32,000 nt of DNA from Chitinophaga solisilvae (GTDB lineage: Bacteria > Bacteroidota > Bacteroidia > Chitinophagales > Chitinophagaceae). This document shows positions 5,755 to 25,797 of this stretch, piece by piece (positions within the stretch are counted from its first letter, which is position 1; the number at the start of each line of letters is the position of its first letter). A model generated the notes under the pieces. The model made no database searches. It was not told the origin of the DNA and worked only from the letters and a program-made list of their open reading frames with translations. Position numbers and translations under genes: made by a program. Location: contig NZ_JAABOK010000011.1 of the NCBI RefSeq assembly GCF_009928525.1, forward strand, positions 228,400-260,399, read 5' to 3'.

Positions 5755-7701
5755 TTACAGTTTTATTTTGTCTTTATCCAGTTCTTCGAAAGCAGAATTC
5801 TTACTGATGAATTCCGGTACCAGCGCTTTCATCAGCGCCACGGTAGGCGTCAGGTAATGCTGTTGCGCAGAGGCAATCAGTTCGCTGACTCTCGCGTCTA
5901 CTTCTGCAAAGCTGTAGCTGCGTACTTTGGCAATCAGTATTTTTTCATGATAGGTAGGCAGGGTATTTTCTGCGTTGTTGAGCAGTTCTTCATACAGTTT
6001 TTCTCCCGGTCTTAATCCGGAGTAAACGATCTGAATATCCCGGCCGGGTTCCTTTCCGCTCATGCGGATCATCTTCCGGGCGAGGTCTGCCACTTTCATG
6101 GGTTTGCCCATATCGAACACAAATATTTCGCCGCCCTGTCCCATAGCGCCCGCTTCCAGCACCAGCTGGCAGGCTTCGGGGATGGTCATGAAATAACGGG
6201 TGATTTCCGGATGCGTTACGGTGAGCGGACCGCCGCTCTCCAGCTGCTTTTTAAAACGTGGAATGACAGACCCGTTGGAACCGAGTACGTTGCCGAAACG
6301 GGTAGTGATAAAACGTGTAGGCGGCAGGCCGAATATGGGGCCTGTCTGCTTGAAATGCTCGTTTATGGAATTATTGAAAGATTGTGTGAAGATTTCAGCA
6401 ATACGTTTGGATGCCCCCATTACATTGGTAGGATTCACGGCTTTGTCGGTAGATACCATCACAAATTTCTCTGCACCGAATTCTACTGCGAGTTCCGCCA
6501 TGATTTTAGTTCCCAGCACATTATTCATAACTGCGATGGAAGGATTTTTTTCCATCATAGGCACATGCTTGTAGGCAGCAGCATGATATACGATAGCCGG
6601 TGCATATACTTCAAACAGCTGCTGCATACGTACTTTATCGCATACGTTACCGATGTACGGAATAACGGGCACATCGGAGCCTTTCTCCAGCATCTCCAGC
6701 TCCAGTTCATGCAGCGGCGATTCCGCCTTATCGCAGAGTATAATCACACTGGGTTCATACTTGATGACCTGGCGTACAATTTCAGAGCCGATAGATCCGG
6801 CAGCACCGGTTACAAGAATACTCTTTCCCTTCAGTTCCTCACTCAGCTGTTCATTCTTGATATTGATCACAGACCTTTCCAGGAGGTCCTCTATATTAAT
6901 ATCTTTCAATTGAATACCATTATTATGTGCGCCATCGATCCACTGATCAACGGAAATAATTTTCTGTACACGAATGTTTAGGGAGATACATTCTTCCACC
7001 AGCTCATTCAGGTGCGGCATATCCAGGTGGTCATCCGGAATCAGCAGCAGGGAGATTTTACCCTGACGGGCCATTTTGAACAACTGACCTTTGCGGGAAA
7101 CATACACCGGCAGGCCTTCAATAGATTTACCGGCATGAGATTTTGAATCTGCCAGGAAGGCCACAATACGGATATCGGAACCGGGATTGTCTGTAATAGC
7201 CTTACGCAGCATAAGGCTGGTATGTCCGGTATGATAAATGGCCGCACGTGTTCTGTTCACTGCCCGGAAATTGTTGTAATATTTGAACACCCATTTCACG
7301 AGCAGGCGGTACGATAAGAGGAAGAAGGAGCCTATAAAGAAATTAATCAGGACTACTGACAATGGAAACAGGTTGGCATCTGCATCCAGCACGTGACTAT
7401 AGCCTATGCTGACCAGCATACAGCAGCTGATGATGTTCATGCAGGCGATATTACCTATGTCTGCAAGGCTGGTATGTCTGACAATACCGCGGTAAGTACG
7501 CAGTATCAGTGATAGTATCAGGGTCACGCCTGTTACGAGGAGGGAAATTTCTTTCAGGGGATATCGGTAGAGCGTTTCTACCTCAAAGTTAAGTCTGAGC
7601 AGAAAGGCCAGATTGATGGCGAGAACGGAGCACCCAAGGTCTAAGAGCAAAATAAGCCATGACGGGGTAATCCATGATGATCTGTGCACCATAGGTTTCA
7701 A
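5755..7701 (-). CDS. Membrane-anchored nucleotide-sugar 4,6-dehydratase (CapD/WbpM/PglF family polysaccharide biosynthesis protein)
   Basis: 648-aa ORF with 4-5 N-terminal TM helices. Rossmann motif ILVTGAAGSIGSEIVRQ and a CapD-type core MVSTDKAVNPTNVMGASKRIAE. It is the first gene of the co-oriented EPS block, with a 6-nt gap to the Wza-like gene. Confidence 0.9.
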   Translation of the reverse strand: MKPMVHRSSWITPSWLILLLDLGCSVLAINLAFLLRLNFEVETLYRYPLKEISLLVTGVTLILSLILRTYRGIVRHTSLADIGNIACMNIISCCMLVSIGYSHVLDADANLFPLSVVLINFFIGSFFLLSYRLLVKWVFKYYNNFRAVNRTRAAIYHTGHTSLMLRKAITDNPGSDIRIVAFLADSKSHAGKSIEGLPVYVSRKGQLFKMARQGKISLLLIPDDHLDMPHLNELVEECISLNIRVQKIISVDQWIDGAHNNGIQLKDINIEDLLERSVINIKNEQLSEELKGKSILVTGAAGSIGSEIVRQVIKYEPSVIILCDKAESPLHELELEMLEKGSDVPVIPYIGNVCDKVRMQQLFEVYAPAIVYHAAAYKHVPMMEKNPSIAVMNNVLGTKIMAELAVEFGAEKFVMVSTDKAVNPTNVMGASKRIAEIFTQSFNNSINEHFKQTGPIFGLPPTRFITTRFGNVLGSNGSVIPRFKKQLESGGPLTVTHPEITRYFMTIPEACQLVLEAGAMGQGGEIFVFDMGKPMKVADLARKMIRMSGKEPGRDIQIVYSGLRPGEKLYEELLNNAENTLPTYHEKILIAKVRSYSFAEVDARVSELIASAQQHYLTPTVALMKALVPEFISKNSAFEELDKDKIKL

Positions 7702-8994: not shown

Positions 8995-10401
8995 TTACTT
9001 TTTTTCTTCATTCGCTGCATACCATTCTGCAAAAGATTGTTTCGGCGGTGCAGGCATATCACGTTGTTTGTACCAGGGGTTCAGGCGGTTGTTCACCATG
9101 CCCGGAAAGGCGCGCATCACCCAGCGTCCCATCTTCCCCGCTCTTTTAAAGGTACCGGGCTTTGATAACACAGCGCTCATCATCTTCATCCCTGCAGTTT
9201 TCCCCGCAGTGGTATGCCCTTCCTTCACCAATACCTGCCGCCATTTATACAACTGCTGATGTATATCTATTTTCACCGGACAAACATTAGAGCAGGAGCC
9301 ACACAGGGTAGAAGCAAAAGGCAGGTCTGCATAATCCTTCATATCCAGGTTGGGCGCCAGGATAGCGCCTATTGGTCCTGCTACCGCAGTATGGTAGCTA
9401 TGCCCGCCGCTGCGGCGGTATACCGGGCAGGTGTTCATACATGCCCCGCAACGGATACACTTCAGCGAGTTACGGAAATCTTCCCTGCCCAGCTGCCTGG
9501 AGCGGCCGTTATCTACCAGCACAATATGCAGTTCCTTACCGGGAACGGGCGTACGGAAATGACTGGAATAGGTGGTGATGGGCTGGCCGGTGGCGCTGCG
9601 CGCCAGCAGCCGCAAAAACACCCCGAGGTGTTTACGCTGCGGAATAATTTTTTCAATGCCCATACAGGCTATATGCACATCTGCCAGGTGCGCCCCCATA
9701 TCGGCATTGCCTTCATTGGTGCAAACCACCATCTCTCCCGTTTCCGCTACTGCGAAGTTCACACCGGTGATCGCAGCCCTGGATGCCAGGAATTCCTTAC
9801 GCAGGTGTGCACGTGCCGCCGCAGTCAGCAACTGCGGATCAGCATTGCCGGCGGGTGTTCCCAGGTGTTCATGAAACAGCTCCCCTATCTCTTCCTTCTT
9901 CTTATGTATACAGGGCAGCACAATATGGCTGGGCGGCTCATCTGCCAGCTGTACAATGCGTTCTCCCAGGTCGGTATCTATTACTTCAATGCCGTTGGCC
10001 TGCAGATGCGGGTTCAGGTGGCATTCTTCCGTGAGCATGGACTTACTCTTCACCATCCGTTTCACGCCATGCTGCTTCAGTATAGCGGTCACTATTTCAT
10101 TATGCTCGGCAGCATCCGCGGCCCAATGTATTATTGCGCCGTTCTGCCGTGCCTGTTGCTCGAACTGCAGCAGGTAGCCGTGCAGGTTACCCAGCACATT
10201 CAACTTGATCTGCGAGGCAGCTTCGCGTAACTGTTCCCATTCAGGAATGCTCCATGCCTGTTTGTCGCGCTTGGCTCTCACCCACCACAACGTTTCATCG
10301 TGCCAGTTGACACGTGGTTCATTTTCATTGAATTTATCCGCCAGCGTGGCGTGGTCAGCTGTTTGCCTGTTCATCTGTTGTCTGGTTGAGGATTTCTGCA
10401 A
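8995..10401 (-). CDS. lutB: Lactate utilisation iron-sulfur protein B (LutB/YkgF-like)
   Basis: 468-aa ORF with two ferredoxin-type clusters, CIRCGACMNTCPVY and CGSCSNVCPVKI, plus an N-terminal LUD-like region. The first ATG (10401) overlaps lutA by 47 nt. An alternative ATG at 10374 overlaps it by 20 nt. Confidence 0.88.
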   Translation of the reverse strand: MQKSSTRQQMNRQTADHATLADKFNENEPRVNWHDETLWWVRAKRDKQAWSIPEWEQLREAASQIKLNVLGNLHGYLLQFEQQARQNGAIIHWAADAAEHNEIVTAILKQHGVKRMVKSKSMLTEECHLNPHLQANGIEVIDTDLGERIVQLADEPPSHIVLPCIHKKKEEIGELFHEHLGTPAGNADPQLLTAAARAHLRKEFLASRAAITGVNFAVAETGEMVVCTNEGNADMGAHLADVHIACMGIEKIIPQRKHLGVFLRLLARSATGQPITTYSSHFRTPVPGKELHIVLVDNGRSRQLGREDFRNSLKCIRCGACMNTCPVYRRSGGHSYHTAVAGPIGAILAPNLDMKDYADLPFASTLCGSCSNVCPVKIDIHQQLYKWRQVLVKEGHTTAGKTAGMKMMSAVLSKPGTFKRAGKMGRWVMRAFPGMVNNRLNPWYKQRDMPAPPKQSFAEWYAANEEKK

Positions 10402-11110
10402 TATGCATCACTTTCACCGGCTGATGCCCGCGGCGTAAGATACCTTCCAGGTGCATCAGGCAGCTCACATCCGTACCGGTAATCACGGTAGCGCCATGTT
10501 TAACGTGATCGGCTACACGGTCTTTTCCCATCTTGACAGACACGGCCTCTTCTGTTACACAGAAAGTACCTCCGAATCCGCAGCACTCATCTTTGCGGTC
10601 CAGCTCTACCAGCTCTACTCCATCCACCATCTGCAGCAGCTGTAAAGGTTTGGAGAAAGGCGCTGCCACCAGCTCGCTCATCTGCGCCAGCCCGAGGCCG
10701 CGCTGCCCGTGGCAGCTCTGATGCAGGCCTACCTTACAGGGAAACCGTGCAGGCAACGACGTTACCTTCAGCACATCCGTTAAGAATTCCGTCAGTTCGT
10801 ATATCCGTGATCGTATGCCGGCCGCTGCCGGCTCCTGCTCCGCATCATGCAGGTGCTCCCTGATATGCAGCACGCAGCTGCCCGAAGGCCCCACTATATA
10901 ATCATATCCGGCAAAATGCTCAATAAACAGGCTGTTGCACTGATGCGTCAGATGCTCATAACCGCTGTTCGCCATCGGCTGTCCGCAACAGGTCTGTCCC
11001 TGCGGATACTCCACTTCACATCCCAGCTTCCGTAAAAGCTGCAACGTGGCAATACCCACCTGCGGATAAAACTGGTCTATGTAACACGGTATAAATAATC
11101 CTACTTTCAC
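10355..11110 (-). CDS. lutA: Lactate utilisation protein A ((Fe-S)-binding CCG-domain oxidoreductase, LutA/YkgE-like)
   Basis: 251-aa ORF with two cysteine-rich CCG motifs (QTCCGQPMANSG and DECCGFGGTF). It is the first gene of the lutABC order. Confidence 0.88.
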   Translation of the reverse strand: MKVGLFIPCYIDQFYPQVGIATLQLLRKLGCEVEYPQGQTCCGQPMANSGYEHLTHQCNSLFIEHFAGYDYIVGPSGSCVLHIREHLHDAEQEPAAAGIRSRIYELTEFLTDVLKVTSLPARFPCKVGLHQSCHGQRGLGLAQMSELVAAPFSKPLQLLQMVDGVELVELDRKDECCGFGGTFCVTEEAVSVKMGKDRVADHVKHGATVITGTDVSCLMHLEGILRRGHQPVKVMHIAEILNQTTDEQANS

Positions 11111-11137
11111 GGATACAATAGTTTAAATGATCACCTG

Positions 11138-11145
11138 CAAATTTA
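11138..11145 (-). promoter_or_regulatory. Candidate Bacteroidota -7 promoter box (TAAATTTG) for lutABC
   Basis: The minus strand reads TAAATTTG, matching the TAnnTTTG consensus, 28-35 nt upstream of the lutA ATG (11110). I saw no convincing -33 TTTG. Confidence 0.3.
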
Positions 11146-11198
11146 GCGGTGAAGGCAGGAGGATTCCTTCCTGTTTTTTACCGCTTACTAACTTATTT

Positions 11199-11330
11199 TT
11201 AATAATTATGAATTAAGAATTATGAATTATGAGTTAAAGGGAGAAGATCCAAGCGAATAATAGAATAGTTATTCGCTTGGATCTTCTCCCTTTAACTCAT
11301 AATTCATAATTATTAATTCATAATTATTAA
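11199..11330. repeat. Long hairpin repeat element 1 (62-nt arms, 8-nt loop)
   Basis: 11199-11260 is the reverse complement of 11269-11330 with one mismatch (61/62). The loop is TAGAATAG. The outer arms are 7-nt tandem units (ATGAATT/AAGAATT/ATGAGTT). The right arm ends exactly at the stop codon (11331-11333) of the lipoprotein gene. 11211-11242 is 30/32 identical to 25596-25627 in element 3. Confidence 0.9.
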
Positions 11331-11921
11331 TTACAATTGGGTCTTAATAGTCACCTGCACCCTTTCCGCATTGATAGCGGTAACTTTCATCACCCCGAAT
11401 TTGCCGGCGGCATTTTTGAACAGTACCAGTCCCTTGTAGGTCATGGGGAAGCTGCCGTTGTCGGCGGCAGTAAACAGGTTATTCAGGGCAGCTACGTGCG
11501 ACAGCGTATCAAATTTAGCAGGATCCAGCTCGTTCGCCGAAGGATAGTTCCGGAACAGGGTGGTGGTGGCGCCGGTAATCTTTACCGTAAGGTTTTTGTT
11601 GTCAGGGCTGCTGAAGAAGAGCATCGCCGGATCCACATCTGCAAATACCAGGTCTATCTTGCTGCCGTCAGCAGGCAGGTTTTTGCGGAGATATACCTTT
11701 CCTTCCTTCGTGGAAAAGGCTACTCCATATTTATCCTTGTCAGGGGAGATGTCAAATTCAATGTCTTTGTAAACTGCCAGCGTATCCTTTTTGGTCACGC
11801 CAGGTACAGGTGTATTGTTATCCGGGTTACCACTGCCGGTATTGGTATCATCTTTTTTGGAACACGCAGTAATGACAGCGGCCAGCATAGCTGCGCCAAT
11901 AAACAGTTTCTTCATAGGCAT
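11331..11921 (-). CDS. Hypothetical lipoprotein (no family recognised)
   Basis: 196-aa ORF with signal peptide plus lipobox MPMKKLFIGAAMLAAVITAC|SKKDD, followed by a Thr/Asn/Pro-rich linker and a beta-rich body. Its composition looks like real coding sequence. Confidence 0.7.
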   Translation of the reverse strand: MPMKKLFIGAAMLAAVITACSKKDDTNTGSGNPDNNTPVPGVTKKDTLAVYKDIEFDISPDKDKYGVAFSTKEGKVYLRKNLPADGSKIDLVFADVDPAMLFFSSPDNKNLTVKITGATTTLFRNYPSANELDPAKFDTLSHVAALNNLFTAADNGSFPMTYKGLVLFKNAAGKFGVMKVTAINAERVQVTIKTQL

Positions 11922-11988: not shown

Positions 11989-12108
11989 CATTTACGGATT
12001 TTGGAATTTTGGAATTTTGAGATTTTGAAAATGCAGCGAAGACCATTGTGTAAATATTTGCTGCATTTTTAAAATCTCAAAATTCCAAAATTCCAAAATC
12101 CGTAAATG
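11989..12108. repeat. Long hairpin repeat element 2 (48-nt arms, 24-nt loop)
   Basis: 11989-12036 is the reverse complement of 12061-12108 with one mismatch (47/48). The arms are 8-nt tandem units (GGAATTTT GGAATTTT GAGATTTT GAAAAT). The right arm ends 1 nt before the stop codon (12110-12112) of the LLM oxidoreductase gene. The core 12017-12042 matches 16021-16044 (24 identical positions, two 1-nt gaps). Confidence 0.9.
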
Positions 12109-15788: not shown

Positions 15789-16008
15789 TTATTTAATATT
15801 TAATTGTGAACTTGTTCTCGCCAATTATTAGACAGGCGGCTACCTGGGCGACTAGAAGAAAAAATGTAAAATAAAAGCTGAGTGTAAAAGGAGATTACCA
15901 ACAGAATTGAAATACAATATTCTTAAGAAGCGCAACGAAGATAAGAGTTTTCCGGAATACGAACCAAACTTTTTTTACCGCAAGGCCCCATCCCGTTTGA
16001 TTATTTAA

Positions 16009-16184
16009 TTATTTTATTATTTGAGATTTTGAAATGAGCGAAGATTTTTTAGGTTCATTTACCCTATTCTAATATCAAATAATAAGATGATAAAATAAAT
16101 TTATATTTTACTGTTTGAAGTTTAACATAAAATGTACTTCTCTTTTGAATTCTTGCTTTGCCTTCAAATCTCAGATAATAAAAT
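16009..16184. repeat. Degenerate/open member of the hairpin repeat family (element 4)
   Basis: ATTTTATTATTTGAGATTTTGAA (16011-16033) is an imperfect inverted repeat of 16163-16184 (one mismatch, one 1-nt indel), with a ~130-nt centre. 16021-16044 matches the element-2 core. 16009-16024 is identical (16/16) to 11954-11969. Confidence 0.45.
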
Positions 16185-16215
16185 AAAAAAATAACTACAT
16201 ATTTTAGCGGGTTAT

Positions 16216-25540: not shown

Positions 25541-25797
25541 GAATTGCGAATTACGAATTACGAATTGCGAATGATAGCGAAGATGGAAATCTGATAATTA
25601 AGAATTATGAATGATGAGTTAACGGGAAAATAGCAGCGAAGCTAAAAGCTGGCATAGGCATAAAGAACAAGTGTTAATAATGCTTCCATCTCCGCTCTTA
25701 TCTTCCCGTTAACTCATCATTCATAATTCATAATTCTTAATTATCAAATTCCCATCTTCGCTATCATTCGCAATTCGTAATTCGCAATTCGTAATTA
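25541..25797. repeat. Long nested hairpin repeat element 3 (~90-nt arms, imperfect centre)
   Basis: 25541-25628 pairs with 25703-25797, with a few mismatches and one 7-nt unit indel. The outer module is GAATTGC/GAATTAC heptamers + GAATGATAGCGAAGATGG. The inner module is AATTAAGAATTATGAATGATGAGTTAACGGGAA, homologous to element 1. The element fills the susD-GH2 spacer, including the susD stop codon, and ends 8-13 nt from the GH2 ATG. Confidence 0.88.

Follow-up and report, generated by a model that had tools for sequence, protein, structure and literature searches.

In this study, we propose that the 132-nt palindrome at positions 11199-11330 of the window (the whole 32,000-nt stretch of Chitinophaga solisilvae DNA that was analysed) is probably a gene-less miniature of a heptamer-armed palindromic mobile element that sits in a terminator slot. 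Element 1, as it is called here, is a typical, well-preserved member of a family of 893 long hairpins in this genome. Whole hairpins of the family have been copied to new sites, in either orientation and without target-site duplication, and the surviving copies are found almost only directly past stop codons. The family seems to represent a gene-less version of a small cassette known from the intervening sequences of 23S rRNA. Element 1 probably serves as a two-way transcription barrier or as an RNase III site. Below, G000 denotes the C. solisilvae assembly, and the other labels of this type denote further genomes of the genus.

Element 1 is built from a left arm (11199-11260) and a right arm (11269-11330) of 62 nt each, complementary at 61 of 62 positions (98%) and separated by the 8-nt loop TAGAATAG (11261-11268); the near-perfect palindrome of the preliminary description was recovered on recomputation. 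The tandem 7-nt units reported for the outer arm are likewise seen, across the outer 38 nt of each arm (TTAATAA, TTATGAA, TTAAGAA, TTATGAA, TTATGAG, TTAAAGG). They belong to the AATTATG/AATTAAG dialect, and in the left arm about five of them (11199-11236) are followed by the core half AAGGGAGAAGATCCAAGCGAATAA (11237-11260), the right arm mirroring this order with one mismatch. Folded as RNA, the element reaches -87.6 kcal/mol, compared to -23.4 +/- 3.5 kcal/mol for shuffled sequences (n = 200; z = -18.5), none of which folded as well. Rfam gave no gathering-score match anywhere in the window.

As noticed earlier, the right arm runs up to the base before a stop codon: its last base (11330) adjoins the stop (11331-11333) of a minus-strand lipoprotein ORF of 196 aa (11331-11921), which has a signal peptide and a Cys lipobox. 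On the other side, 88 nt separate the left arm from the start of a lutA-like gene (10355-11110, minus strand), the first gene of a downstream lutABC unit. These 88 nt form a conserved upstream block (11111-11198, minus strand) that contains a -7 box, TAAATTTG (11138-11145). This box is of the Bacteroidota type and lies 27 nt 5' of the lutA start, and the block is conserved in at least ten species. The stop-codon-adjacent position of element 1 is where a transcription unit ends, lutA having its own conserved -7 box. In agreement with the initial view that the palindrome has no U-tract and is not a canonical intrinsic terminator, a T-tract is absent past the full stem on both strands, and a scan with the canonical-terminator consensus flagged nothing at 11199-11330. 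The inner core does end in CCCTTT and is followed by very A+T-rich arm sequence.

The window holds further members of the family. Element 2 (11989-12108), with GGAATTTT-type arms and a AAATGCAGCGAAG core, lies directly 3' of the stop codon of an LLM oxidoreductase gene, at a position where relatives have merely a short hairpin. Element 3 (25542-25796) consists of AATTACG-type outer arms around an inner module (25596-25735) in the same dialect as element 1. The reported identity of 30 out of 32 nt between both elements (11212-11243 and 25596-25627) stands, but the stretch concerned comprises the heptamer array's inner end together with the junction to the core and not, as had been thought, the innermost stem. 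A degenerate or opened family member is present in a divergent spacer (16001-16194).

To place these elements in context, the whole genome (7.99 Mb, 48.6% G+C, 50 contigs, 100% complete) was scanned for hairpins. At a minimum of 24 paired nt in each arm, the scan returned the 893 non-overlapping hairpins, with medians of 53 nt for the arm, 97% for complementarity and 19 nt for the loop. The suspected dispersed repeat family with copies beyond the window is thus real, and the ATGAGTTA junction of element 1 is common to 47 modules in the genome. Tandem-unit, A+T-rich arms are found in 816 of the 893 hairpins and come in several dialects (GAATTAC/GAATTGC; AATTATG/AATTAAG; TTATTTGAGATTT; GGATTTTGGAATTT). 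The number of units per arm peaks sharply at 4-5 and is equal in both arms in 364 of 505 copies, and most cores inside the heptamer arrays carry a GCGAAGAT-like motif. Forty-four elements of at least 200 nt are nested composites in which one complete element is located at the apex of another, as is the case for element 3. Since the repeats break the assembly, the real copy number probably exceeds 893; indeed, the first bases of contigs C4, C10, C16, C20, C24, C25 and C30 fall inside a hairpin copy. The pattern GAATTACGAATTGCGAAT was counted in G000 (618 occurrences), in G031 (67) and in 58 further genomes of the genus (0-3 each).

The hairpins are distributed unevenly over the spacers between the 5699 genes that were called with a purpose-made simple codon-usage gene caller. 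They are present in 342 of 868 convergent spacers (39%), 463 of 3917 tandem spacers (12%) and 52 of 877 divergent spacers (6%), while five copies are located inside genes. The outer edge of a hairpin lies at a median of 3-4 nt from a flanking stop codon (interquartile range -2 to 10) and of 59 nt from a flanking start codon, and 67.5% of the elements in convergent spacers have both stop codons within 12 nt. Canonical hairpin-plus-T-tract terminators begin at a median of 32 nt past the stop, which is about the length of one heptamer array. Stop-codon usage beside the elements is approximately that of the whole genome. Between tandem genes, 180 of 432 copies (42%) leave less than 40 nt to the next start codon. 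These copies must therefore be read through, and the family therefore cannot consist of absolute terminators throughout. The motif TAnnTTTG occurs in 8 of 86 element-to-start gaps shorter than 20 nt and in 3 of 727 element-free spacers shorter than 20 nt; promoter-like boxes might sometimes be supplied by the edges of the elements. The only reverse-transcriptase gene of G000 (C1:571506-573068) is followed, after its stop, by an AATTACG-type hairpin and two extra tandem copies of the right half-arm (C1:573071-573420). We do not regard this gene as relevant, as it seems to be an unrelated system in which a hairpin happens to lie past the stop.

The copies bear the marks of repeated propagation. 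Clustering at 88% identity over at least 85% of the length yielded two clusters of 168 and 166 copies together with many small ones. Among the copies with a CGAATG junction, 137 of 448 have an identical 26-nt core elsewhere in the genome, the median nearest neighbour being 1.5 differences away. Sibling copies at unrelated loci have an asymmetric loop in common and are found in both orientations. In the 166-copy cluster the core diverges by 21.7% between copies versus 2.8% between the two arms of one copy, and 549 compensated differences from the consensus stand next to 119 uncompensated ones. This arm-matched divergence fits a situation with many palindromic source lineages in which only hairpin-forming copies propagate. 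Compensated divergence does not tell whether mobility or host function was selected for, and in an analysis of private variants for arm-to-arm conversion the variants were saturated.

Target-site duplications are absent: direct repeats of 3, 4, 5 and 6 nt in the flanks numbered 17, 12, 2 and 0, with 19.8, 6.6, 1.7 and 0.6 in shuffled flanks, respectively. In the flanks, T|AATTACG...CGTAATT|A is weakly preferred, and the elements have ragged ends within the array. G000 gave no match to a Y1_Tnp/RAYT gene (PF01797), for which the control genomes did match, and no IS110 transposase was found in it. No transposase-bearing parent with arms of the family was found either; where relatives bear a gene, it is a PF05635 four-helix-bundle ORF. 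A classical DDE-derived MITE is ruled out by the lack of both a target-site duplication and a transposase-bearing parent. Insertion into terminator loops may occur, as in the copy surrounded by a full terminator at C6:773-983. It was dismissed as the main route, as only about ten AATTACG-type copies have a palindromic outer flank that is not itself repeat. Long palindromes are destroyed by SbcD in E. coli. SbcD (TIGR00619) has no match in G000, and it passes the cut-off in 20 of 151 sampled genera of the Chitinophagaceae and fails it in the other 131, whatever their repeat load. Its absence may provide a permissive background for long palindromes that is not specific to G000; loss of SbcD as the reason for the tolerance of palindromes in this genome was rejected on the same numbers.

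The comparison with relatives shows what they have in the slot of the element. The nearest species in the collection are rather distant (lutA is only 79-82% identical and the nearest genome about 82%), the lipoprotein of the element 1 locus has no record elsewhere, and the collection holds no recent pair of a filled and an empty site. The order lutA - lipoprotein - LLM oxidoreductase is kept in three relatives (G053, G056 and G011). In these, the lutA upstream block including its TAAATTTG box is conserved to the base that matches position 11199 of the window. Homology ends exactly at this left edge of element 1 and resumes at the lipoprotein stop codon, and the lipoprotein terminates at the same residue in G000 and in all three relatives. 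Their lipoprotein-lutA spacer of about 70 nt contains a GC-rich stem followed, on the sense strand of the lipoprotein gene, by TTTTTATTTT, and this combination is a canonical intrinsic terminator. In G000, the sole content of this slot between the stop codon of the monocistronic lipoprotein gene and the lutA promoter block is element 1 (about 131-132 nt), which has no sequence in common with the terminator at its site in the relatives. The apparent replacement of the terminator could be the result of an insertion followed by decay.

Similar differences are seen elsewhere. A comparison of 400 kb of G053 with G000 gave 100 syntenic adjacent gene pairs, 16 of which have an element in G000. At these 16 spacers, G053 has an element of another dialect or core in five cases, a canonical terminator in four to five and no spacer in three, where the stop codons overlap or only 16 nt are present. 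The C-termini of the genes are mostly unchanged at the compared sites, one being 10 residues shorter in G000. Moreover, a hairpin-plus-T-tract terminator is found at 46% of the convergent 3' ends of G000 that lack an element and at 18.5% of the ends that have one, and in the second group many of the terminators are the elements' own cores. To a large extent, then, a given position has either an element or a canonical terminator. At one locus both occur side by side: G000:C3:178241-178443 is a complete AATTACG-type hairpin next to a canonical bidirectional terminator that is conserved, and the orthologous site of G053 (piece 142031-142152) has a solo half-arm (CAAAATCTCCAAATAACTAAAT...) beside the same terminator.

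How element 1 would act at the end of the lipoprotein gene can be modelled from its build. Whichever side transcription comes from, the core stem of 25 bp would form first, and CCCUUU with the very A+U-rich RNA after the core would favour pausing and some release, giving a leaky bidirectional barrier. RNA that is read through would complete the 62-bp duplex, a textbook RNase III substrate, which the host enzyme may cut as RNase III does in the Coxiella intervening-sequence stem; an RNase III gene is present in G000. The predicted outcome is that the lipoprotein transcript is separated from lutABC, with a stem stub or hairpin-capped 3' end left on it. Selection on the RNA of one strand was considered for the family and set aside. 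Arm mismatches on the sense strand show no significant excess of G.U over A.C (310 vs 271, p = 0.11), and the orientation of the loop relative to transcription is random (40 vs 43; 44 vs 41), thus giving no sign of such selection. Together with the copies that must be read through between tandem genes, these results speak against a strong or exclusively RNA-based role.

The main competitor of this model is a purely selfish palindromic repeat without any host function, whose copies would persist past stop codons only since insertions elsewhere are harmful, and next to which the old terminators decayed or were deleted by chance. The lack of a strand-specific signature of RNA selection is in line with it, as are the recent bursts of near-identical copies, the lineage-specific occurrence of the GAATTACGAATTGCGAAT pattern and the contigs that break at copies. 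Yet, passive survival alone leaves both the 3-4 nt distance between edge and stop and the two-stop contact of about two thirds of the convergent copies unexplained. In addition, the presence of an element goes along with an about 2.5-fold depletion of canonical terminators, and the orthologous slots in relatives hold terminators, which suggests at least a functional substitution. A wholly selfish repeat is a possible but rather unlikely explanation.

The origin of the family as a mobile element with a role at gene ends, the reading we prefer, is illuminated by its gene-bearing relatives. G000 has two PF05635 genes (S23p/Avd-like four-helix-bundle proteins of about 120 aa; PF05635 proteins are homologous to Avd, an accessory protein of diversity-generating retroelements, PMC10053308), and both are located between arms of the hairpin family. 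The first (C4:159014-159370) has an AATTACG-type left arm that begins 5 nt past the upstream stop codon and a matching inverted right arm of two perfect consecutive units; the subterminal GAGCGGAGAT motifs of this cassette resemble hairpin cores. The second (C47:205319-205690) lies between TTATTTGAGATTT-type arms. Its left flank (C47:205100-205320) shows a local duplication, in that arm and subterminal sequence (TATTTGAGATTTTGTTTCAGCAAGTTGTC...) are present there twice in nearly identical form.

This arrangement recurs across the genus, where 28 of 103 genomes have a PF05635 gene. Inverted tandem-heptamer arrays at a distance of 415-520 nt flank the ORF in 22 of the 31 loci examined, compared to 11 of 458 (2.4%) for a control set of other G000 genes of 100-146 aa. 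The arms at these loci are of the AATTACG, AATTATG (x 11), AATTAAG, AGCNNAA, TAGCTNT, GTCCTAG or GGATTTT type. Gene-bearing copies of element 1's own dialect were not found in G000 but are present in G009 and G060. In the former, locus L059 (G009:C16, ~6400-6980) has the four-helix-bundle gene between perfect inverted arrays of 11 AATTATG units (80-nt arms), and many further AATTATG-type arrays occur in this genome. Given PF05635 genes between family arms and the build of the Coxiella intervening sequence, the best reading of the hairpins is that of cassettes which lost their gene through internal deletion. G015 and G012 have such hairpins while PF05635 has no match in them; the hairpins thus persist without the gene, whose product may not be the mobilising factor. 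On a wider scale, we tentatively suggest, as a possibility short of a probable reading, that the heptamer hairpins are the non-autonomous form of an unrecognised class of mobile element, with the PF05635 cassette, taken as identical with the 23S intervening sequence, as its gene-bearing form. Such elements would spread without target duplication into hairpin and terminator slots (the tips of rRNA helices, terminator positions, the apex of other copies), maybe via a hairpin RNA or single-stranded DNA, and would have taken over a large share of the transcription-unit ends of G000.

The gene-bearing copies also bear on the idea of a host-evolved, extra-long intrinsic terminator that is not mobile and has grown outward in place through slippage in the flanks and hairpin-templated repair. 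Many TTATTTGAGATTT-type copies have a canonical terminator core (A-tract, GC-stem, T-tract), arm lengths of 28-35 nt equal the usual stop-to-terminator spacing of 32 nt, and unit numbers vary, all of which would suit such growth. However, hundreds of copies at unrelated loci are alike over their whole length, asymmetric loops included, the same arms enclose a protein-coding cassette and element 1 has nothing in common with the terminator that relatives have at its site; growth in place is very unlikely. Likewise very unlikely is an element that acts at the DNA level only, as a cruciform or single-stranded hairpin that binds a nucleoid, topoisomerase or replication protein in the way BIMEs bind gyrase and IHF: arm symmetry kept without a preference for G.U over A.C, irrelevance of orientation and the lack of SbcD in G000 would agree with it, but no protein is known to bind it, most of the Chitinophagaceae lack SbcD irrespective of repeat load, placement tracks gene ends instead of a chromosomal periodicity and the published relative acts as RNA (PMC4990558).

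If the mobile, terminator-slot reading of the family is true, then in this soil bacterium (8 Mb) a mobile hairpin takes the place of the ordinary terminator at about one third of the convergent gene pairs, and a selfish repeat turns over gene-end signals. The family provides a handle on the nature and movement of the 23S rRNA intervening sequences and of the S23p/Avd-like protein; the genus is culturable, and G000 combines hundreds of young copies that lack the gene with two that carry it. From a practical point of view, the repeats break short-read assemblies and would confound the prediction of terminators and operons in Bacteroidota.

Several known systems resemble the family in part. Bidirectional intrinsic terminators are also located past convergent genes and have a GC-containing stem flanked by complementary A-/T-rich sequence. 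The stem of element 1 is, however, 62 bp long versus 6-15 bp and is not followed by a T-tract, and many family copies are situated inside operons and must be read through. The REP/BIME/REPIN elements of Proteobacteria are high-copy extragenic palindromes past gene ends as well, with compensated hairpins and no target-site duplication, and REPs are known as mRNA 3' stabilisers and partial terminators; they are 20-40 nt long, are characterised by a GTAG or CGTC head and need a RAYT, which is a Y1 transposase. The G000 family shares the high copy number and the extragenic position past gene ends (five of its 893 copies are inside genes), but it has arms of 50-60 nt made of tandem heptamers, no GTAG/CGTC head and no RAYT. 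Correia/NEMIS elements of Neisseria and ERIC elements of Enterobacteria are intergenic elements of 100-170 nt whose inverted ends form long RNA hairpins, which are processed by RNases and alter mRNA levels. Here, the difference resides in the termini, as those elements have fixed terminal inverted repeats and TA duplications, whereas the ends of the G000 family are ragged within the repeat array and not accompanied by a duplication. The original comparison to ERIC/REP elements therefore applies to placement (intergenic, past stop codons, enriched between convergent and rare between divergent genes); the family is no member of REP/REPIN or ERIC, as it lacks a RAYT gene, a GTAG/CGTC head and a TA duplication.

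The preliminary description also knew of no account of the family. It is not entirely undescribed, as inverted heptamer arrays of Xanthomonas (PMC4692102) and a heptamer-armed S23p intervening sequence of Coxiella (PMC4990558) have been published. The literature searched contained no account of hairpins with A+T-rich heptamer arms in Chitinophaga, nor did it connect gene-less hairpins between genes with the S23p cassette. The TAACTGA repeats of Beggiatoaceae (PMC4679880) were discarded as a relative, since they are direct repeats upstream of start codons. The inverted pairs of heptamer simple-sequence repeats in Xanthomonas (GGGAATC) and Nostoc (GGGGAYT) are closer (Rehm et al. 2015, PMC4692102). 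Arrays of the Xanthomonas type prefer about 4 units, occur as 70-75 convergent (inverted) pairs per genome, lie at most 50 bp from stop codons or overlap them, and are rare between divergent genes (PMC4692102). The G000 family likewise has about 4-5 tandem heptamers per array and convergent pairs near stop codons. The G-rich units of Xanthomonas and Nostoc were read as G-quadruplex formers and were not linked to a gene-bearing cassette (PMC4692102), whereas the AATTATG, AATTAAG and AATTACG units of G000 are A+T-rich and cannot form quadruplexes.

The closest parallel is offered by the ORF-bearing 23S intervening sequences of Coxiella burnetii, Leptospira and others, which are regarded as selfish (PMC4990558). 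That of C. burnetii contains an S23p ORF in the loop and a 28-bp terminal stem with 3-4 tandem heptamers, the number of which varies between strains, and RNase III cuts this stem at the first heptamer (PMC4990558). Element 1 differs in that it has no ORF (an 8-nt loop), is positioned between protein-coding genes, in the lipoprotein-lutA spacer and not in helix 25 or 45 of 23S rRNA, and belongs to a family of about 890 copies; RNase III cleavage, known for the Coxiella stem, is predicted here. It shares with them the long stem of inverted arms with tandem heptamers, and its gene-bearing relatives in the genus are built exactly as the ORF-bearing 23S intervening sequences.
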